A DNA stretch of 64,000 bases from Escherichia coli (GTDB lineage Bacteria > Pseudomonadota > Gammaproteobacteria > Enterobacterales > Enterobacteriaceae): the NCBI RefSeq assembly GCF_044647545.1, contig NZ_CP172818.1; one strand, 5' to 3'. The translations under genes and the position numbers were made by a program. Positions 3,531 to 50,124 of this stretch are shown one piece after another. Under the pieces are notes generated by a model that worked only from the letters and a program-made list of their open reading frames with translations, ran no database searches and was not told the origin of the DNA. How positions within the stretch are numbered: position 1 is the stretch's first letter; each line of letters opens with the position of its first letter.

Positions 3531-4193
3531 ATGACCATTACCTCTCTGGATGGCTATCGCTGGCTGAAGAACGATATTATTCGCGGTAATTTTCAACCGG
3601 ATGAAAAATTACGGATGAGTTTGCTGACATCGCGTTATGCACTTGGCGTTGGGCCGTTACGGGAAGCTCTTTCGCAACTGGTGGCGGAACGGCTGGTCAC
3701 GGTGGTGAATCAAAAAGGGTATCGGGTGGCGTCTATGTCAGAGCAGGAGCTGCTCGATATTTTCGACGCCCGCGCCAATATGGAAGCGATGCTGGTGAGT
3801 CTGGCGATTGCCCGCGGTGGCGATGAATGGGAGGCAGACGTTCTCGCAAAAGCGCATCTGCTCAGTAAGCTTGAGGCCTGTGACGCCAGTGAGAAAATGC
3901 TTGATGAGTGGGATCTGCGTCATCAGGCGTTTCATACTGCAATTGTGGCGGGCTGTGGTTCTTACTATTTGCTGCAAATGCGTGAACGGTTGTTTGATCT
4001 GGCAGCGCGTTATCGCTTTATCTGGCTGCGGCGAACAGTGCTTTCGGTGGAAATGCTGGAAGATAAACACGATCAGCACCAGACCCTGACTGCGGCGGTA
4101 CTGGCGCGAGATACCGCGCGCGCCAGTGAGTTAATGCGCCAGCATTTACTGACGCCAATTCCCATTATCCAGCAGGCGATGGCTGGCAATTAA
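3531..4193 (+). CDS. csiR: GntR-family transcriptional repressor CsiR
   Basis: ORF track frame 3513..4193; start placed at ATG 3531 with AGGAG RBS at 3519-3523; 220 aa. Confidence 0.9.
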   Translation: MTITSLDGYRWLKNDIIRGNFQPDEKLRMSLLTSRYALGVGPLREALSQLVAERLVTVVNQKGYRVASMSEQELLDIFDARANMEAMLVSLAIARGGDEWEADVLAKAHLLSKLEACDASEKMLDEWDLRHQAFHTAIVAGCGSYYLLQMRERLFDLAARYRFIWLRRTVLSVEMLEDKHDQHQTLTAAVLARDTARASELMRQHLLTPIPIIQQAMAGN

Positions 4194-4643
4194 CTACTCT
4201 TCAGGAATACGCAACACTTGCCCCGGGTAAATTTTATCCGGGCTTTTTAGCATCGGTTTATTCGCTTCGAAGATTTTATTGTACAGATTAGCGTTACCGT
4301 AGACCTGTTTGGAAATGGCACTCAGAGTGTCGCCAGACTTAACGGTATAAAACTGGCTGGCAGTGGCTGGTGTCGCCGTTTTCACCTGATCATCGACACT
4401 GGCAATACCGGAAATATTCCCCACCGCAACAAGGATTTTCTCCTTCGCCTCCTGACTTAAGCCGTCACCCGTGACCGTCGCTTTGCCGTCGGCAATTTGA
4501 ATGTTCACTTTATCGGCATCAGGTATACCGGTTTTGTTCAGATGCTCCTGCACCTTCTTCGCCTGATCGTCTTTATCGTGCTGACCTGTAACCGCGTCCC
4601 AGAGTTTTTCTCCGGCATCTTTCACAAAATTGAACAGACCCAT
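4194..4643 (-). CDS. kbp: potassium-binding protein Kbp (BON + LysM domains)
   Basis: ORF track 4194..4670 minus strand; start placed at internal ATG (4643) with GAGG RBS; LysM-like C-terminus ...[11 protein letters not shown]. Confidence 0.9.
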
Positions 4644-8362: not shown

Positions 8363-8390
8363 CCCCGAAGCCTGGCTTCGGGGTTTCTTC
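8363..8390 (+). terminator. rho-independent terminator after ygaM
   Basis: ccccgaagcc-tg-gcttcgggg hairpin followed by TTTCTTC. Confidence 0.65.
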
Positions 8391-8584
8391 ATTATGCCCG
8401 GCAAAAAAACACAAAAATCCCCTACCCCGTTGAGCCATTCATCGGTGGCGTAATCAATCTAAAATTCCCATATCTTGTGTGGTTGAATCTTTTTTCAACT
8501 ACATCTAGTATCTCTGTATCAACAGAGAGACAACCCGACGCGTATCATCGCGCCGTATCTTCATTTTAAACGGAAATACGAATC

Positions 8585-25538: not shown

Positions 25539-25652
25539 GACTCACTGGCGTTCGCCCTTCGGGCCGTTGCTGGCCGGCGTTATCCTCCCTGGTGCCTGCG
25601 GTTAATACCGCTACCTCTTCGATATCTTCATTGCTGAAGGTTACGGAGAAGA

Positions 25653-25729
25653 TGGTGCATCCGGGAGGATTCGAACCTCCGACCGCTCGGTTCGTAGCCG
25701 AGTACTCTATCCAGCTGAGCTACGGATGC
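25653..25729 (-). tRNA. argQ: tRNA-Arg (anticodon ACG)
   Basis: Reverse complement is GCATCCGTAGCTCAGCTGGATAGAGTACTCGGCTACGAACCGAGCGGTCGGAGGTTCGAATCCTCCCGGATGCACCA (77 nt, CCA encoded). Confidence 0.95.
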
Positions 25730-25792
25730 ATCGGGAAAATTTATTTTATTGCTGATATTGATACCGCTACTAAAGCCATATCAAGTAAGAGA

Positions 25793-25869
25793 TGGTGCAT
25801 CCGGGAGGATTCGAACCTCCGACCGCTCGGTTCGTAGCCGAGTACTCTATCCAGCTGAGCTACGGATGC
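25793..25869 (-). tRNA. argZ: tRNA-Arg (anticodon ACG)
   Basis: Identical 77-nt tRNA-Arg copy. Confidence 0.95.
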
Positions 25870-25931
25870 ATCGGGAAATTTATTTTACTGCTGATATTGA
25901 TACCGCCACTAAAGCTATATCAAGTAAGAGA

Positions 25932-26008
25932 TGGTGCATCCGGGAGGATTCGAACCTCCGACCGCTCGGTTCGTAGCCGAGTACTCTATCCAGCTGAGCT
26001 ACGGATGC
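25932..26008 (-). tRNA. argY: tRNA-Arg (anticodon ACG)
   Basis: Identical 77-nt tRNA-Arg copy. Confidence 0.95.
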
Positions 26009-26071
26009 ATCGGGAAACTTACTTTACTGCAGATTTTTTGATACCGCCACTAAAGCCGTATCAAGTAAGAA

Positions 26072-26148
26072 TGGTGCATCCGGGAGGATTCGAACCTCCG
26101 ACCGCTCGGTTCGTAGCCGAGTACTCTATCCAGCTGAGCTACGGATGC
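26072..26148 (-). tRNA. argV: tRNA-Arg (anticodon ACG)
   Basis: Identical 77-nt tRNA-Arg copy. Confidence 0.95.
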
Positions 26149-26151
26149 AAA

Positions 26152-26244
26152 TGGCGGTGAGGCGGGGATTCGAACCCCGGATGCAGCTTTTGACCGCATA
26201 CTCCCTTAGCAGGGGAGCGCCTTCAGCCTCTCGGCCACCTCACC
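26152..26244 (-). tRNA. serV: tRNA-Ser (anticodon GCU), long variable arm
   Basis: Reverse complement is GGTGAGGTGGCCGAGAGGCTGAAGGCGCTCCCCTGCTAAGGGAGTATGCGGTCAAAAGCTGCATCCGGGGTTCGAATCCCCGCCTCACCGCCA (93 nt). Confidence 0.95.
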
Positions 26245-33414: not shown

Positions 33415-34952
<1,538 letters not shown>

Positions 34953-34962
34953 AGGCTGAAAC

Positions 34963-36117
<1,155 letters not shown>

Positions 36118-36122
36118 TTAAC

Positions 36123-36150
36123 AGCGGAGATCCGTTAAGGATCTCCGCGA
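36123..36150 (+). terminator. hairpin after srlD (weak terminator candidate, no clear U-tract)
   Basis: gcggagatcc-gttaa-ggatctccgc perfect inverted repeat. Confidence 0.35.
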
Positions 36151-36162
36151 GACTAATAGAAT

Positions 36163-36191
36163 GCCTGATGCGCTACGCTTATCAGGCCTAC
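36163..36191. repeat. REP element between srlD and gutM
   Basis: gcctgatgcgctacgcttatcaggcctac. Confidence 0.6.
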
Positions 36192-36222
36192 AGGACTTCC
36201 GCCACTACATTAAGGAGAAGTT

Positions 36223-36582
36223 ATGGTATCCGCACTCATCACCGTCGCCGTTATCGCCTGGTGTGCGCAACTGGCCTTAGGCGGCTGGCAAATTTCTCGT
36301 TTTAACCGTGCCTTCGACACACTATGCCAGCAAGGGCGGGTTGGCGTGGGCCGTTCCAGCGGGCGCTTTAAACCGCGGGTCGTGGTCGCCATCGCCCTGG
36401 ACGATCAGCAGCGCATCGTCGACACCTTGTTTATGAAAGGACTGACCGTCTTCGCCCGACCGCAAAAAATTCCCGCAATTACCGGTATGCATGCGGGTGA
36501 TTTACAGCCCGATGTGATCTTTCCCCATGATCCACTATCACAGAATGCTCTATCATTGGCGCTTAAACTGAAACGTGGATAA
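36223..36582 (+). CDS. gutM: glucitol operon activator
   Basis: ORF track 36223..36582, 119 aa. Confidence 0.93.
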   Translation: MVSALITVAVIAWCAQLALGGWQISRFNRAFDTLCQQGRVGVGRSSGRFKPRVVVAIALDDQQRIVDTLFMKGLTVFARPQKIPAITGMHAGDLQPDVIFPHDPLSQNALSLALKLKRG

Positions 36583-36648
36583 TTTCGTTGTGAATGTTAC
36601 TTGCTTGCGAAGTTATCATTTTGAAACCTAAATCAGGTAATCACGCCC

Positions 36649-37422
36649 ATGAAACCTCGTCAGCGTCAGGCCGCCATTCTGGAGTATCTGCAAAAGCAGG
36701 GTAAATGCTCGGTTGAAGAATTGGCGCAATACTTTGACACCACAGGCACAACCATTCGCAAAGATCTGGTCATTCTGGAACATGCCGGAACCGTCATTCG
36801 TACTTATGGCGGAGTGGTGTTGAATAAAGAGGAATCCGATCCGCCTATCGATCATAAAACACTCATCAACACCCACAAGAAAGAGCTGATTGCAGAAGCT
36901 GCCGTTAGTTTTATCCATGATGGCGATTCGATCATTCTTGATGCTGGCAGTACCGTTTTGCAGATGGTTCCCCTGCTCTCGCGCTTTAATAACATCACAG
37001 TGATGACCAACAGCCTGCATATCGTCAATGCGCTATCCGAACTGGATAACGAACAAACTATCCTGATGCCAGGCGGAACATTTCGTAAAAAATCGGCCTC
37101 ATTTCACGGGCAACTGGCAGAGAATGCCTTCGAGCATTTCACCTTCGATAAATTGTTTATGGGCACCGACGGCATCGATCTCAATGCGGGCGTAACCACG
37201 TTCAACGAGGTTTATACCGTCAGTAAGGCAATGTGCAATGCCGCGCGCGAAGTGATTTTGATGGCGGACTCATCAAAGTTTGGCCGTAAAAGCCCCAACG
37301 TAGTTTGCAGTCTTGAAAGCGTCGATAAGCTAATTACCGACGCAGGTATCGATCCAGCGTTTCGTCAGGCGCTGGAAAAGAAAGGGATCGACGTGATCAT
37401 AACCGGAGAGAGCAATGAGTGA
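36649..37422 (+). CDS. srlR: DeoR-family glucitol operon repressor
   Basis: ORF track 36649..37422, 257 aa. Confidence 0.95.
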
Positions 37423-38380
37423 AGCACTACTGAACGCGGGACGTCAGACGTTAATGCTGGAGTTGCAGGAAGCAAGCCGTTTACCGGAACGTCTGGGCGA
37501 TGATTTTGTTCGCGCCGCCAATATCATCCTGCACTGCGAAGGCAAAGTGGTGGTTTCGGGAATTGGCAAATCGGGCCACATTGGTAAGAAAATCGCCGCA
37601 ACGCTTGCCAGCACCGGCACTCCTGCCTTTTTTGTCCATCCGGCAGAGGCATTGCACGGCGACCTGGGGATGATCGAAAGCCGCGATGTGATGCTGTTTA
37701 TCTCTTACTCCGGTGGCGCGAAGGAACTGGATCTGATTATTCCGCGTCTGGAAGATAAATCTATCGCGCTGCTGGCGATGACCGGCAAACCGACGTCACC
37801 GCTGGGCCTGGCGGCGAAAGCGGTGCTGGATATCTCCGTAGAACGCGAAGCCTGTCCGATGCACCTTGCGCCGACCTCCAGCACCGTGAATACCCTGATG
37901 ATGGGTGACGCGCTGGCGATGGCGGTCATGCAGGCGCGCGGATTTAATGAAGAAGATTTTGCCCGCTCCCACCCTGCTGGAGCACTGGGCGCTCGCTTGC
38001 TGAATAAAGTGCATCATCTGATGCGCCGTGATGACGCTATCCCGCAGGTAGCGTTAACCGCCAGCGTGATGGATGCGATGCTGGAACTCAGCCGCACTGG
38101 TCTGGGGCTGGTGGCGGTATGTGACGCTCAACAACAGGTACAAGGCGTCTTTACCGACGGCGATTTACGTCGCTGGCTGGTTGGCGGCGGTGCACTCACC
38201 ACGCCAGTCAATGAAGCGATGACGGTCGGCGGCACCACGTTGCAATCGCAAAGCCGTGCCATCGACGCCAAAGAAATCCTGATGAAACGCAAAATCACCG
38301 CCGCACCGGTAGTGGATGAAAACGGCAAACTCACCGGCGCAATTAACCTGCAGGATTTCTATCAGGCCGGGATTATTTAA
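37415..38380 (+). CDS. gutQ: D-arabinose 5-phosphate isomerase (SIS + CBS domains)
   Basis: ORF track 37415..38380, 321 aa; overlaps srlR by 8 bp. Confidence 0.95.
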
Positions 38381-39891
38381 TCCTTCAGCCCCAGACGTTT
38401 CGCCAACCGATGCAAGTTGGCGACGTCGGTTTCCAGCATCCGTGCGCTGGCAGCCCAGTTGTGATGATTTTGTGCCAGTGCCTGACGAATGGTTTCACGC
38501 TGGAACGCTTCTGTCGCTTCACGCAGGTTTTGCTTAACGATAGGCACCGCCGCCGCTTCTGGCGGCGGCAACGTCACCTCAGGAAAAGCAAAATGTTGCG
38601 CTTCAAGAATCACTTCATCGCCGCTGCGGGTCGCTCTCGCCAGCACCACCGCCCGATGAATAGCATGTTCCAGTTCGCGCACGTTTCCCGGAAAACTGTA
38701 GTGTTGCAGTAAATTTCGCGCCCCGGCACTTAATACCACGCGGGAGAGCCCCAGCCGCAAACGACACTGCTCGCAGAAATACCCCGCCAGCAGAATGACA
38801 TCATCGCCCCGCTCACGCAGCGGCGGCACCGAAAGTGGGAACACGCTCAGGCGATGAAACAAATCGGCGCGGAATCGCCCTGCCAGCACCTCTTCGCGTA
38901 AGTCGCGGTTAGTCGCCGCCAGCACGCGCACATCGACCCGCAAACTGCGGTCATCGCCAACGCGCTGAATATCGCCATACTGCAACACCCTCAGCAGCTT
39001 GGCCTGCAATGCCAACGACAGCTCGCCGATCTCATCGAGAAACAGTGTGCCGTTATCCGCCATTTCAAACTTCCCGCTGCGGTTACTGATAGCGCCAGTA
39101 AACGCTCCTTTCACATGCCCGAACAACTCACTTTCCGCCACACTTTCCGGCAGTGCGGCACAGTTGAGATAGACCAGCGGATTCACCGCCCTTGGCGAGG
39201 TTTCATGAATCGCTTTCGCCACCAGCTCCTTACCGGTTCCCGTCTCACCGCTGATTAAGACGTTGAGATCGGACGCCGCCACAATCTCAATCTCTTTTTT
39301 CAATTGCGTCATGCCTGGCGACAAGCCAATCATCTGCGTCTGTTTCACCGCTTCAAACGGCGCGGCATCGCCCGGCAGCATATTCTGGCTTTCCAGTTGC
39401 TCAATCAGCAACGCATTGCTTAACGCTCCCGCCGCCAGCGCGGCAATCAGGCGTAACTCTTCGTCGCTGAAAACATCGAACTGATCGGGTTGCATCCCGT
39501 CGAGCGTCAATGCGCCGATCAGGTTTTGCCCGGCAAACAATGGCAGACCAACGCAGGCGTGAACCTTCAGACTCTCCTGCCCGGGAATCAAACCGTCATA
39601 GGGATCGGGCAATTCGCTGTCTGCGGGAAAGCGCACCACGTCCCCGGCGCGGGCAATCGCTTCCAGCCGTGGATGCCCTTCCAGCGCAAAGCGTCTACCG
39701 AGTACATCCTTCGCCAGCCCGTCGATGGCAAGCGGAATAAACTGCCGCGAGTCATAACGTAGCAACGCAGAGGCATCACACTCCAGCACCTGACGCAGCG
39801 TGGTGATCAGGCGCTGAAAACGATCCTGATGACCAATCCCACGCTGCAATTCGATGGCGATATTCGCCAGCACATCAACGGAAAAACTCAT
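38377..39891 (-). CDS. norR: sigma54-dependent NO-responsive activator (GAF, AAA+, HTH)
   Basis: ORF track 38377..39891, 504 aa; GAFTGA motif present (KGAFTGA). Confidence 0.96.
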
Positions 39892-39903
39892 CTTTGCCTC
39901 ACT

Positions 39904-39959
39904 GTCAATTTGACTATAGATATTGTCATATCGACCATTTTATTGATAGTCATTTTGAC
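39904..39959 (+). promoter_or_regulatory. three NorR enhancer sites (GT-N7-AC) in the norR-norV intergenic region
   Basis: gtcaatttgac (39904-39914), gtcatatcgac (39925-39935), gtcattttgac (39949-39959) read from sequence; matches the described NorR site consensus. Confidence 0.8.
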
Positions 39960-40014
39960 TACTCATTAATGAGCACAATTTTATTTATAGAGTAAAAACA
40001 ATCAGATAAAAAAC

Positions 40015-40030
40015 TGGCACGCAATCTGCA
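40015..40030 (+). promoter_or_regulatory. sigma54 (-24/-12) promoter of norVW
   Basis: TGGCAC-gcaat-cTGCA with the canonical GG-N10-GC spacing, about 48 bp upstream of the norV ATG. Confidence 0.8.
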
Positions 40031-40077
40031 ATTAGCAAGACATCTTTTTAGAACACGCTGAATAAATTGAGGTTGCT

Positions 40078-41517
40078 ATGTCTATTGTGGTGAAAAATAA
40101 CATTCATTGGGTTGGTCAACGTGACTGGGAAGTGCGTGATTTTCACGGTACAGAATATAAAACGCTGCGCGGCAGCAGCTACAACAGCTACCTCATCCGT
40201 GAAGAAAAAAACGTGCTGATCGACACCGTCGACCATAAATTCAGCCGCGAATTTGTGCAGAACCTGCGTAATGAAATCGATCTGGCAGATATCGATTACA
40301 TCGTAATTAACCATGCTGAAGAGGACCACGCCGGGGCGCTGACCGAACTGATGGCGCAAATTCCCGATACGCCGATCTACTGTACAGCCAACGCTATCGA
40401 CTCGATAAATGGTCATCACCATCATCCGGAGTGGAATTTTAATGTGGTGAAAACTGGCGACACGCTGGATATCGGCAACGGCAAACAGCTCATTTTTGTC
40501 GAAACGCCAATGCTGCACTGGCCGGACAGCATGATGACTTACCTGACAGGCGACGCGGTGCTATTCAGTAACGATGCTTTCGGTCAGCACTACTGCGACG
40601 AGCATCTGTTCAACGATGAAGTGGATCAGACGGAGCTTTTCGAGCAGTGCCAGCGTTACTACGCCAATATCCTGACGCCGTTCAGCCGCCTGGTAACGCC
40701 GAAAATTACCGAGATCCTGGGCTTTAACTTGCCAGTCGATATGATAGCGACCTCTCACGGCGTGGTATGGCGCGATAACCCGACGCAAATTGTCGAGCTG
40801 TACCTGAAATGGGCGGCGGATTATCAGGAAGACAGAATCACCATTTTCTACGACACCATGTCGAATAACACCCGCATGATGGCTGACGCTATCGCCCAGG
40901 GGATTGCGGAAACCGACCCACGCGTGGCGGTGAAAATTTTCAACGTCGCCCGAAGCGATAAAAACGAAATCCTGACCAATGTCTTCCGCTCAAAAGGCGT
41001 CCTGGTCGGCACTTCGACGATGAATAATGTGATGATGCCGAAAATCGCCGGGCTGGTGGAGGAGATGACCGGATTACGCTTCCGTAACAAACGCGCCAGT
41101 GCTTTCGGCTCTCACGGCTGGAGCGGCGGTGCGGTGGATCGTCTTTCCACGCGCCTGCAGGATGCGGGTTTCGAAATGTCGCTTAGCCTGAAAGCCAAAT
41201 GGCGACCAGACCAGGACGCTCTGGAGTTATGTCGTGAACACGGTCGCGAAATCGCCCGTCAGTGGGCGCTCGCGCCGCTGCCGCAGAGCACGGTGAATAC
41301 GGTGGTTAAAGAAGAAACCTCTGCCGCCACGACGGCTGACCTCGGCCCACGGATGCAATGCAGCGTCTGCCAGTGGATTTACGATCCGGCAAAAGGTGAG
41401 CCAATGCAGGACGTTGCGCCAGGAACGCCGTGGAGTGAAGTCCCGGATAACTTCCTGTGCCCGGAATGCTCTCTCGGCAAAGACGTCTTTGACGAACTGG
41501 CATCGGAGGCAAAATGA
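40078..41517 (+). CDS. norV: anaerobic NO reductase flavorubredoxin
   Basis: ORF track 40078..41517, 479 aa; metallo-beta-lactamase-like, flavodoxin and C-terminal rubredoxin (CxxC...CxxC) regions. Confidence 0.96.
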
Positions 41518-42647
41518 GCAACGGCATTGTGATCATTGGTTCGGGCTTCGCCGCCCGCCAACTGGTGAAAAATATTCGCAAACAGGACGCCAGTATTCCA
41601 TTAACTCTGATTGCCGCCGACAGCATGGATGAGTACAACAAACCTGACCTCAGCCATGTTATCAGTCAGGGGCAACGTGCCGATGACCTTACCCGCCAGA
41701 CGGCAGGTGAATTTGCCGAGCAGTTTAATCTGCGCTTGTTTCCGCACACCTGGGTAACGGATATCGATGCCGAAGCCCATGTGGTGAAAAGTCAGAATAA
41801 TCAGTGGCAATACGACAAGTTAGTGCTGGCAACCGGTGCCAGCGCCTTTGTCCCGCCAGTGCCCGGGCGTGAGTTAATGCTGACGTTAAATAGTCAGCAA
41901 GAGTATCGCGCCTGTGAAACGCAACTGCGGGATGCCCGACGCGTGTTGATTGTTGGCGGTGGCTTGATTGGTAGCGAGCTGGCGATGGATTTTTGTCGGG
42001 CAGGCAAAGCGGTCACGCTAATCGACAACGCTGCCAGTATTCTGGCGTCGTTAATGCCACCGGAAGTAAGCAGCCGCTTGCAGCATCGGTTGACGGAGAT
42101 GGGCGTTCATCTGCTGTTAAAATCTCAGTTGCAGGGACTGGAAAAAACAGATTCTGGCATTCTGGCAACGCTGGACCGCCAGCGCTGCATTGAAGTGGAT
42201 GCGGTAATTGCCGCCACCGGACTGCGCCCGGAAACCGCCCTGGCACGACGCGCCGGGCTGACGATTAATCGTGGCGTTTGCGTCGATAGCTATCTGCAAA
42301 CCAGTAATGCCGATATTTATGCGCTGGGCGATTGCGCGGAAATTAACGGTCAGGTATTGCCGTTCCTCCAGCCGATTCAACTTAGCGCAATGGTGCTGGC
42401 AAAAAATCTTCTCGGCAATAACACGCCGCTGAAACTACCGGCGATGCTGGTGAAAATCAAAACGCCGGAATTACCGCTGCATCTGGCAGGCGAAACCCAG
42501 CGTCAGGATTTACGCTGGCAAATTAATACCGAACGCCAGGGAATGGTTGCGCGCGGTGTTGACGATGCTGACCAGCTTCGCGCCTTTGTGGTCAGTGAGG
42601 ATCGGATGAAAGAGGCGTTTGGATTGTTGAAAACGTTGCCGATGTAG
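41514..42647 (+). CDS. norW: NADH:flavorubredoxin reductase
   Basis: ORF track 41514..42647, 377 aa; 4-bp overlap with norV. Confidence 0.96.
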
Positions 42648-50006: not shown

Positions 50007-50124
50007 ATCTGGGGTTTGGCATCAGAAAAAAAAAGCTGGTGGCCTGTGCAGGCAGCACTAAGCTCAATAAAAAAGCGCACATCCCTGTTCTGATGTTCAA
50101 TTCCCTGAATTCCTTACTGAAAAA

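Follow-up and report, generated by a model that had tools for sequence, protein, structure and literature searches.

A stop-codon overlap of ordinary kind between gutQ and norR, and a conserved stem-loop in the last norR codons that is probably the end of the gutQ message

The convergent genes gutQ and norR of Escherichia coli share four nucleotides at their stop codons. This overlap is of the ordinary, ancient tail-to-tail kind between bona fide genes; it is already annotated, and in itself it is nothing new. The sole new element at the junction is a conserved stem-loop in the last codons of norR, which probably forms the end of the gutQ message. The two genes belong to different physiological contexts: gutQ, the last gene of the srlAEBD-gutM-srlR-gutQ operon, encodes D-arabinose 5-phosphate isomerase, and norR encodes the sigma-54-dependent NO-responsive activator of norVW. 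Coordinates refer to the window, which is the whole 64,000-nt stretch of E. coli DNA that was analyzed (contig NZ_CP172818.1).

Results

Two genuine genes with interlocked stop codons

Bases 38370-38389 read directly as GGATTATTTAATCCTTCAGC, and the tetranucleotide TTAA at 38377-38380, common to both strands, is read as TAA on each of them. The gutQ CDS (plus strand, 37415-38380) ends with the TAA at 38378-38380, and the norR CDS (minus strand, 38377-39891) ends with a TAA that is the reverse complement of TTA at 38377-38379; for both genes the open reading frame, the NCBIfam match, and the RefSeq annotation agree. GutQ matches the equivalog NF008581 over residues 1-321 of 321 with 675.6 bits (cut-off 481), and NorR matches the equivalog NF003451 over residues 2-503 with 824.6 bits (cut-off 476). 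Each partner is a genuine protein-coding gene, and the two lie tail to tail on opposite strands. An earlier note on this DNA had placed the two stops in overlap within this TTAA, and the sequence and both reading frames bear it out. Because the reading frames are conserved, both stops are fixed, and a different stop for either gene upon re-annotation is excluded by the RefSeq annotation and by the conserved junction.

The overlap is exactly 4 nt long, and its tetramer is one of the four (CTAA, TTAA, CTAG, and TTAG, together YTAR) that form the modal class of convergent overlaps, the frequency of overlap lengths showing a jump at 4 nt (Lillo and Krakauer 2007, PMC2174442). The number of convergent overlaps counted in E. 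coli is 58 (PMC2174442) or 75 (Huvet and Stumpf 2014, PMC4161906), and two of the seven convergent pairs in the window have no spacer. As a member of this known 4-nt class, the gutQ-norR overlap is no statistical oddity, though it is stably inherited. Elsewhere in the window, the convergent genes csiR (glaR) and kbp are separated by a 0-nt gap, with TAA followed directly by CTA at 4191-4196. At the other end of gutQ, the reading frames and the annotation place the srlR stop and the gutQ start in a co-directional overlap of 8 nt (37415-37422, plus strand), in keeping with the operon context. We also considered a palindrome across the two stops (GGATTA-TT-TAATCC, 38370-38383) and rejected it: it lacks conservation and is a by-product of the codons for Gly-Ile and Asp-Lys.

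The junction drifts among four legal states

The 4-nt overlap is present in the RefSeq annotation of three E. coli genomes, namely a strain identical to the window over the 801-bp query, K-12 MG1655 (b2708/b2709, with gutQ at 2829813-2830778 and norR at 2830775-2832289), and the most divergent genome sampled. Of the 5426 complete E. coli genomes queried with 44 nt of the junction, all but one (5425) match in a single ungapped piece. Orthologs were found in 80 species, and the best 120 matches of a NorR protein search are all at least 88% identical. Among 63 distinct junctions from at least 15 genera of Enterobacteriaceae, the tetramer was TTAA in 27, CTAA in 24, CTAG in 10, and TTAG in two, and its central TA was invariant in all 63. 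Position 1 of the tetramer (Y) makes the norR stop TAA or TAG and is also the third base of the last GutQ codon; position 4 (R) decides between TAA and TAG as the gutQ stop and stands opposite the third base of the last NorR codon. Because the last codons of the 63 distinct junctions are always NNY, the changes at Y and R are synonymous.

The overlap is nearly free of cost, since it needs only a last codon ending in a pyrimidine in each protein, and each stop is free to switch between TAA and TAG within it. Because it costs almost nothing, it probably persists as a frozen arrangement and not as a device. Variants of the orthologous locus comprise overlaps of 4, 8, and 38 nt, as well as insertions and deletions. 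The 8-nt overlap results from a 7-nt deletion, after which, in Klebsiella and Raoultella, a conservative Ile-to-Leu substitution in GutQ destroys the norR stop and extends NorR by 10 residues. In some lineages a toxin-antitoxin module or a tandem array separates gutQ from norR, and some have lost norRVW altogether.

The strongest synonymous constraint in norR falls on a conserved stem-loop

A GC-rich stem-loop that lacks a U tract (GACG-UU-CGCCAAC[CGAUGCAA]GUUGGCG-ACGUC) lies at 38394-38427 on the plus strand. It begins 14 nt past the gutQ stop, lies within norR codons 489-500, and is a candidate for the 3'-terminal hairpin of the srl-gutQ mRNA, in a protective or a pausing role. The bases that come after it are GGUUUCC in the window; in many genera they are CCAUCUCC. 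The z score of the local fold is -2.96 for the window and -3.74 for K-12, with values ranging to -4.0. When 81-123 nt centered on the junction were folded, z lay between -0.5 and -1.9, short of significance, and the hairpin emerged only from a narrower folding span together with comparative data.

Of 81 loci, 78 carry the motif and one more has a compensated version (79/81). Paired cells make up 95.5% of 819, and three cells are compensatory, with both bases changed, a result reached by none of 500 shuffles; columns 181/190 form a series from C-G to U.G to U-A. Covariation is thin, most stem pairs never varying. In one locus (L072) the hairpin beside gutQ is lost, and in another (L007) it is weakened (z = -1.1).

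The synonymous sites of norR give a stronger signal. Synonymous entropy has its norR-wide minimum in the last 20 codons (-0.65 bits per codon), a value reached by three of 2000 permutations (family-wise p ~0.0015, under a permutation scheme that assumes independent codon columns), and the next-best non-overlapping window reaches -0.24. This strongest constraint coincides with the stem-loop at 38394-38427. Within the region, third positions have a mean z of -0.76 in the stem versus -0.07 in the loop and flanks, and columns with an invariant amino acid elsewhere in norR average 0.007. The last ~19 codons of srlR are also constrained (p = 11/2000) and served as a positive control for the method; the constraint in gutQ was not significant (p = 199/2000). 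Weak covariation together with strong, position-specific synonymous constraint is what we find at this site, as for a conserved functional RNA structure.

The hairpin is more stable on the plus strand

The structure is asymmetric between the strands. The RNAalifold consensus is -22.0 kcal/mol on the plus strand and -15.0 kcal/mol on the minus strand, the mean MFE is -22.4 versus -18.0 kcal/mol, and the hairpin is more stable on the plus strand in 35 species and on the minus strand in five. Pair 180-191 is G.U in 58 of 63 species, which on the minus strand would give a central C.A mismatch. These observations bear on a reading that we regard as rather doubtful, in which the hairpin is unrelated to gutQ. 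It would then be a by-product of norR or a signal for it, such as a 3' structure of its mRNA or a protein-bound DNA palindrome, or else the synonymous constraint would have another cause, and gutQ transcripts would run to Rho without a defined protective end. Consistent with this reading, the stem arms are near-palindromic and the structure also forms on the minus strand, 30 cells would be G.U on the minus strand only, and at pair 172-197 there are 27 cells that are C.A on the plus strand and would be G.U on the other. Likewise, a displaced norR (L041) retains the upper stem, and no 3' end was mapped at the hairpin by Adams et al. (PMC7815308).

The strand asymmetry speaks against it, and so does the position of the hairpin within the last 16 norR codons: it would make a poor protective end for the norR mRNA, because trimming to the hairpin would remove the stop codon. 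The behavior of norR remnants points in the same direction. In two noncoding remnants that adjoin gutQ (L038 and L050) the hairpin has been retained and its G.U pair has become a better G-C pair, whereas the norR copies of L050 that lie away from gutQ have stem-breaking changes. Finally, a consensus scan found no promoter-like site at the hairpin. The preferred reading, an element that serves gutQ on the plus strand, agrees with the protective stem-loops at the 3' ends of mRNAs that Rho terminates, if strand and function are as this comparative evidence suggests.

Transcripts of gutQ probably end by Rho within antisense norR

The earlier note had argued that the missing intergenic space leaves no room for terminators. 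There is indeed no spacer, and because of this the 3' untranslated part of each mRNA is antisense to the partner gene. The argument is nevertheless misleading, since signals can sit in the partner CDS, as does the conserved stem-loop 14 nt past the gutQ stop; that the terminators of such pairs must lie there is a general point made by Lillo and Krakauer (2007, PMC2174442). The note's further proposal, that each transcript ends in the partner gene or reads through, has support in the gutQ direction, for which a Rho termination region within antisense norR has been published in K-12. This bicyclomycin-sensitive region, at MG1655 2831288 on the plus strand and labeled "antisense norR," was called in K-12 and not in the window strain, using 800-nt windows, with a Rho score of 5.27 (p = 2.2e-12) (Adams et al. 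2021, PMC7815308, Supplementary file 2). Reads upstream and downstream of it number 87 and 25 without bicyclomycin and 130 and 197 with it (PMC7815308). The region lies ~510 nt beyond the gutQ stop, at a resolution of ~800 nt that makes read-through from gutQ indistinguishable from a possible antisense promoter. Assuming no indels (NorR has 504 aa in both genomes), it corresponds to ~38890 in the window.

The sequence around this point is C-rich and G-poor. Untranslated RNA of this kind, antisense to norR, extends over 38589-39080 on the plus strand; the first 600 nt beyond the gutQ stop contain 33% C versus 26% G, and the excess of C over G peaks at +209-260, at +339-400, and from +495 beyond the stop. 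As in protective 3' ends, a stable stem-loop that lacks a U tract is found here close to the stop, and the untranslated RNA after it has C over G.

An intrinsic or bidirectional terminator, that is a GC-rich hairpin with an immediate U tract and, for bidirectional function, an A tract before it, is not found at 38394-38427, and a lenient search for a hairpin plus T residues succeeds in only 21 of 63 species on the plus strand and 33 of 63 on the minus strand. A scan of consensus promoters and terminators returned seven sites versus 4.5 +/- 2.1 in shuffled sequences, not above chance, and no plus-strand site after gutQ. An Rfam scan of 34000-42000 at E <= 1 gave no match at the junction; the only two matches, both sub-threshold, fall in the srlD-gutM spacer. 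Published Term-seq data contain no 3' end in gutQ or norR (PMC7815308; LB and M63-glucose, conditions in which the srl operon is little expressed), and the supplements of SMRT-Cappable-seq and TERMITe do not mention either gene.

On the norR side, two weak terminator-like hairpins with T-rich tails occur inside gutQ, 40-85 nt past the norR stop (38296-38336, minus strand). They are not conserved and are probably not functional. We rejected the norR-side hairpin (~38298-38339, minus strand) as a terminator: one arm varies as Thr, Cys, and Val replace one another between genera, RNAalifold yields no consensus on the minus strand (-4.1 kcal/mol), gutQ lacks significant constraint, and no more than 33 of 63 species have any terminator-like site 3' of norR on the minus strand.

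A different way to end both transcripts would be assisted by collision: polymerases from gutQ and norR would meet near the junction, and the stem-loop of the nascent RNA would fix the site, so that neither transcript would need a classical terminator. In convergent E. coli gene pairs, termination is reported to be driven by head-on collisions together with a nascent-RNA stem-loop (Wang et al., bioRxiv 10.1101/2022.10.23.513370), and here 14 nt separate the conserved stem-loop from the junction. The published model, however, involves bidirectional intrinsic terminators in spacers with A and U tracts, and gutQ-norR has neither a spacer nor a conserved U tract. Moreover, both genes are weakly expressed in most conditions, so that convergent polymerases should rarely be present at the same time, and the sensitivity to bicyclomycin points to Rho. 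We therefore hold this mechanism to be very improbable here.

It is also unlikely, if less so, that coupling of the two loci is what the overlap is for. Under such a scheme, sorbitol-induced read-through from the srl operon into antisense norR would lower NorR through polymerase collisions or RNase III, or the reverse would occur, giving mutually exclusive expression. The pair is among 165 convergent excludons of MG1655, defined by transcript overlap in at least 50% of 58 RNA-seq sets (PMC12288877, Table 1), transcript overlap is unavoidable given a 4-nt coding overlap, and the arrangement is conserved across Enterobacteriaceae. But the listing reflects read coverage only, and for convergent pairs the ExcludonFinder authors could not obtain validation by p19 dsRNA capture (PMC12288877). 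Rho stops plus-strand transcription within ~0.5 kb, there is no obvious physiological link between an arabinose-5-phosphate isomerase and NO detoxification, and lineages tolerate the inserted toxin-antitoxin module or tandem array, or the complete loss of norRVW. Conservation is more simply explained by the near-zero cost of YTAR and by the lack of indel paths that would spare both C-termini. In the literature we found no reciprocal-expression, RNase III, or 3'-end data on gutQ-norR, and no evidence of functional antisense interference between the sorbitol and NO responses. Separately, gutQ is listed in the p19 dsRNA table S2 with an unremarkable value.

Discussion

Building on the overlap and its conservation, the conserved hairpin, and the synonymous constraint, all observed here, and on the published bicyclomycin-sensitive termination in K-12, we propose the following account. 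A polymerase that leaves gutQ would first make the U-tract-less stem-loop (38394-38427) and then C-rich, G-poor untranslated RNA, on which Rho would load and end transcription a few hundred nucleotides into antisense norR. After 3'-to-5' trimming, the stem-loop, presumably acting on plus-strand RNA, would most likely mark and protect the 3' end of the mature srl-gutQ mRNA, and the need for this end would freeze the norR synonymous sites at the stem-loop. Transcripts of norR appear to have no conserved 3' signal in gutQ and probably also rely on Rho. Some overlap of sense and antisense RNA is unavoidable, though probably incidental. We have moderate confidence in this account as a whole, that is a frozen YTAR overlap, a stem-loop that serves as the gutQ mRNA end, and Rho termination in antisense norR.

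A more specific reading, which we put forward tentatively as a possibility, is that the stem-loop is a selected dual-use element, a 3'-end stabilizer of the sorbitol-operon mRNA or a Rho-pause hairpin in the last 12-16 norR codons, which would freeze norR synonymous sites across Enterobacteriaceae; modulation of norR by sorbitol-induced read-through would be a by-product. If true, nature would here offer a clean case in which a transcript-end signal has evolved within a coding sequence of the opposite strand and constrains it. When norR is recoded or deleted, possible effects on the srl-gutQ mRNA should be expected. More generally, the hairpin and its synonymous footprint suggest that having no intergenic space is not the same as having no 3'-end signal, and if the final codons of convergent partners were scanned for synonymous constraint, embedded transcript-end elements could be located genome-wide. 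The overlap itself is of little weight, being annotated, belonging to a catalogued class, and with the pair already in a list of overlapping transcripts. The locus does offer a compact teaching example of how a convergent pair without a spacer evolves, the YTAR junction drifting among its four legal states.

Comparison with known systems places each part of the locus. Like other 4-nt convergent overlaps, gutQ-norR consists of two real genes on opposite strands with their stops interlocked in YTAR, and nothing categorical sets it apart; what it adds is a resolved evolutionary series of 4-nt, 8-nt, and 38-nt overlaps, insertions, and deletions. The csiR (glaR)-kbp pair is likewise convergent, without a spacer, and in the ExcludonFinder list, but its stops abut and do not interlock. 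With the excludons of MG1655 (PMC12288877) our pair shares convergent genes with overlapping transcripts and a place in the list; unlike in those, the overlap begins in the coding sequences and not only in the UTRs, and with respect to the defining outcome of excludons, mutually exclusive expression through interference or RNase III, gutQ-norR is a candidate listed by transcript overlap. Bidirectional intrinsic terminators (10.1101/2022.10.23.513370) also have a hairpin near a convergent boundary, whereas gutQ-norR lacks a spacer and flanking A or U tracts, and its hairpin is asymmetric, lying 14 nt into norR only, with nothing comparable on the norR side of termination. There is also a likeness to Rho-dependent mRNAs, whose 3' ends lie at stable stem-loops that lack U tracts and precede an enrichment of C over G (Dar and Sorek 2018, PMC6061677). 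Common to both are a GC-rich stem-loop soon after the stop, no U tract, C over G, and bicyclomycin-sensitive termination a few hundred nucleotides further on. In contrast to those mRNAs, the gutQ stem-loop, here a candidate end only, and the presumed Rho-loading RNA lie wholly inside the CDS of the convergent norR, and the stem-loop leaves a measurable footprint in the synonymous sites of that gene.

The overlap of gutQ and norR and how common such overlaps are

Both gutQ and norR are certainly genuine genes: the NCBIfam equivalogs NF008581 and NF003451 cover GutQ at positions 1-321 of 321 (675.6 bits, cut-off 481) and NorR at residues 2-503 (824.6 bits, cut-off 476), and the flanking genes encode SrlR and NorV. 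The gutQ ORF (37415..38380, + strand) stops with TAA at 38378-38380, and the norR ORF (38377..39891, - strand) with the reverse complement of TTA 38377-38379, as read directly on the + strand at 38368-38389 (...GGG ATT ATT TAA TCC TTC AGC...); the TTAA at 38377-38380 is common to both coding sequences. Three E. coli genomes have the 4-nt overlap in their RefSeq annotation, namely a strain 100% identical across our 801-bp query, K-12 MG1655 (b2708, 2829813-2830778; b2709, 2830775-2832289) and the most divergent E. coli genome sampled. ORFs, equivalog matches and annotation thus agree on the overlapping stops described in the earlier note. A different stop on re-annotation is excluded, because the overlap is identical in these three genomes and a 44-nt junction query gave a single ungapped match in 5425 of 5426 complete E. 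coli genomes. The core segment around the junction (38000-38800) is unusually diverse in E. coli, with 60 records at 99% identity or more, 3322 at 95-99% and 2044 at 90-95%; identity to K-12 is 97.1% for gutQ and 96.5% for norR, and 99.5% and 99.7% for the nearby recA and gutM.

The overlap is an already known feature and the arrangement is ordinary. Lillo and Krakauer (2007; PMC2174442) described exactly this class of convergent overlap and counted 1890 cases, 1218 of them of at least 5 nt, leaving about a third at 4 nt or less (their Tables 2 and 3); the authors also noted that terminators of such genes necessarily lie inside the partner's coding sequence. For E. coli, 58 convergent overlaps were listed there, and 75 convergent overlapping pairs by Huvet and Stumpf (2014; PMC4161906). 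Spacers in the seven convergent pairs of the window itself measure 0, 46, 36, 63, -4, 78 and ~170 nt. The 0-nt spacer belongs to a second spacer-less pair, csiR-kbp, at 4191-4196, where the csiR stop (TAA 4191-4193, + strand) abuts that of kbp (reverse complement of CTA 4194-4196, - strand); this pair is also in the ExcludonFinder table, as glaR-kbp (PMC12288877).

Elsewhere in the window, four tandem tRNA-Arg genes followed by tRNA-Ser lie on the - strand upstream of csrA (25650-26244), with repeat units mutually 95-100% identical. Relative to the closest complete genome, FDAARGOS_497, the window is without two segments, at 8386-8396 (1.87 kb, encoding PLP-dependent aminotransferase-family and carboxymuconolactone decarboxylase-family proteins) and at 50025-50032 (563 bp, between ascB and hycI and close to an HTH-domain gene), outside which the two are 99.99% identical.

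The junction across Enterobacteriaceae

A GutQ-based scan with one genome per species yielded 80 loci from Escherichia, Citrobacter, Salmonella, Enterobacter, Lelliottia, Leclercia, Kosakonia, Klebsiella, Raoultella, Kluyvera, Pseudocitrobacter, Phytobacter and others (L numbers below denote loci, with coordinates of their own). The 63 distinct junctions with a 4-nt overlap read TTAA (27), CTAA (24), CTAG (10) or TTAG (2), with an unchanging central TA. The first position (Y) decides whether norR stops with TAA or TAG and doubles as the third base of the last GutQ codon (ATY or CTY); the fourth (R) makes the same choice for gutQ and is paired with the third base of the last NorR codon, invariably NNY (Asp, Ser, Gly, Ala, Arg, Asn or Pro). 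Because the variable positions coincide with third bases of last codons, the YTAR overlap is nearly free of cost, and this suffices to explain its persistence.

Longer overlaps are also found. A 7-nt deletion in two Enterobacter genomes (L032, L039) creates an 8-nt overlap, with NorR ending in ...GLK*. In Klebsiella and Raoultella this deletion is accompanied by a second change: the last GutQ codon, ATT, has become CTT (Ile to Leu), by which the norR stop TAA becomes GAA. Their NorR is extended by 10 residues, ending in ...LKESRPDKSSAG* or ...LKGSPPGKSSAG*, and the overlap with gutQ grows to 38 nt, at ~3929-3966 in L051, L056-L058, L061, L062, L064-L066, L069 and L070. The Enterobacter overlap is the intermediate state. 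Separately, norR aligns in two or three tblastn pieces in Citrobacter koseri NCTC10786 (L009) and Leclercia adecarboxylata NCTC13032 (L047), which implies frameshifts, in pseudogenes or through assembly errors; the 4-nt junction is intact in both.

A conserved stem-loop within constrained norR codons

The earlier note held that there is no intergenic space for terminators, a view that needs correcting: a conserved stem-loop at 38394-38427, supported by folding, alignment and synonymous constraint, lies inside norR and starts 14 nt past the gutQ stop. The first 63 nt past that stop gave folding z scores against shuffles of -2.96 for the window, -3.74 for K-12 and -2.94 for Klebsiella. The + strand RNAalifold consensus is this single hairpin (-22.0 kcal/mol), with 95.5% of alignment cells paired across 63 sequences; its - strand version is weaker (-15.0), and downstream of the norR stop on the - strand there is no conserved structure (-4.1). 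The motif occurs in 78 of 81 loci, and one more has a compensated version. Alignment columns 181/190 run through C-G, U.G and U-A, columns 175/196 show a single C-G to U-A change, and columns 180/191 interchange G.U, A-U and G-C; by itself this covariation is weak, since most pairs are invariant. The stem is not followed by a U tract; the sequence after it is GGUUUCC in the window and CCAUCUCC in many genera.

We scanned codon entropy at conserved-amino-acid columns, normalised per amino acid, in 15-codon windows. The strongest synonymous constraint in the whole of norR falls within its last 20 codons, with a deficit of 0.65 bits per codon that was reached by 3 of 2000 family-wise permutations; the next-best non-overlapping window was just -0.24. 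Protein conservation does not account for this, because invariant-amino-acid columns elsewhere in norR average z = 0.007. The constrained codons are the site of the stem-loop (codons 489-500), and third positions in the stem have a mean z of -0.76 (n = 9), compared with -0.07 in loop and flanks (n = 7). As a positive control, the scan detected the last ~19 codons of srlR (~238-257; p = 11/2000), consistent with the gutQ ribosome-binding and start region lying within srlR, which overlaps gutQ co-directionally by 8 nt (37415-37422). Constraint in gutQ was not significant (p = 199/2000).

Transcript ends around the junction

At the junction itself, folding is no stronger than in shuffles (z = -0.5 to -1.9). 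The number of consensus terminator-like sites does not exceed chance, and the sites are not conserved (+ strand, 21 of 63 species; - strand, 33 of 63). Past the gutQ stop, + strand RNA has more C than G (33% versus 26% in the first 600 nt), and pronounced C-rich stretches begin at +209; such a composition is expected of Rho-loading RNA. The srl operon is poorly expressed in LB and M63-glucose. Curated Term-seq tables for these two media contain no 3' end within gutQ or norR (Adams et al. 2021; PMC7815308). The same study compared DirectRNA-seq with and without bicyclomycin and reported a Rho termination region at K-12 2831288 (+), classed as antisense to norR, with upstream/downstream reads of 87/25 without and 130/197 with the drug (Rho score 5.27, p = 2.2e-12). 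This position is 510 nt beyond the gutQ stop (~38890 in the window), and the suggestion that each transcript ends within the partner gene is borne out in the gutQ direction. Another Rho region lies within srlR at 2829346 (PMC7815308). The srlD-gutM spacer (36079-36188) contains a REP-like palindrome with sub-threshold Rfam matches (naRNA4, 23.4 bits; NiCo-AnGGAG, 24.9 bits), and its K-12 equivalent has a Term-seq 3' end at 2828590 (+); given this end and the srlR Rho region, transcription appears to be attenuated twice ahead of gutQ.

In ExcludonFinder (2025; PMC12288877), gutQ-norR is one of the 165 convergent excludons, pairs whose coverage overlaps in 50% or more of 58 MG1655 transcriptomes; p19 dsRNA capture, according to its authors, gave no validation of convergent pairs. 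We found no literature report of reciprocal gutQ and norR expression.

Rearranged loci and the proposed role of the stem-loop

Several loci have separated the two genes or lost norR. In Enterobacteriaceae bacterium UBA7338 (L041), a prlF-yhaV toxin-antitoxin pair (PF15937, PF11663; 4011-4828) lies between them, and ~35 nt of the norR 3' end adjoin gutQ, followed by a canonical hairpin and U tract. In Kosakonia quasisacchari (L050), an 83-bp x 2.7 tandem array (4036-4262), whose unit contains the last ~50 nt of norR, separates gutQ from the real norR, and an additional degenerate, frame-shifted copy of the norR end lies directly beside gutQ. Escherichia sp. MOD1-EC7003 (L007, Escherichia clade; from ~4010, with REP-like repeats and then hypF beyond) and Kosakonia cowanii (L072; from ~3975) have a deletion of norRVW, and norR is missing in Enterobacter sichuanensis (L038; from ~4030); all three retain a short norR 3'-end remnant beside the gutQ stop. 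Because such separations and losses are tolerated, any regulatory antisense interference, of the kind that the earlier note raised as a potential effect, is an unlikely reason for the overlap.

The non-coding remnants beside gutQ in L038 and L050 retain the hairpin (z = -4.0 and -3.8), and in both a G.U pair has been improved to G-C, a change forbidden so long as Asn is encoded there; in L050 the stem is weakened by changes in the copies that lie away from gutQ (-17.3, -15.0 and -12.4 versus -23.9 kcal/mol). We propose that this hairpin within norR serves the srl-gutQ mRNA as its 3'-end element, and that the need for it freezes norR synonymous sites. Against this role, L007 has a weakened hairpin and L072 none, L041 has its canonical structure instead, and the displaced L041 norR retains the upper stem. 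The stem is near-palindromic, so it may act on the - strand, where its predicted fold is the weaker one, or at the DNA level. Its link to gutQ is, from these comparisons, suggestive only.

The embedded stem-loop and its synonymous footprint are the sole new item here, and we infer its function. The 3'-end role is proposed because the architecture matches that described by Dar and Sorek (2018; PMC6061677) for Rho-dependent E. coli mRNAs, in which Rho termination is diffuse and lies downstream, the ends are then trimmed back by PNPase and RNase II, and a stem-loop sets and protects the steady-state 3' end. Like those mRNAs, gutQ-norR has a stable stem-loop near the stop without a U tract, then RNA with C over G, and bicyclomycin-sensitive termination a few hundred nucleotides on.
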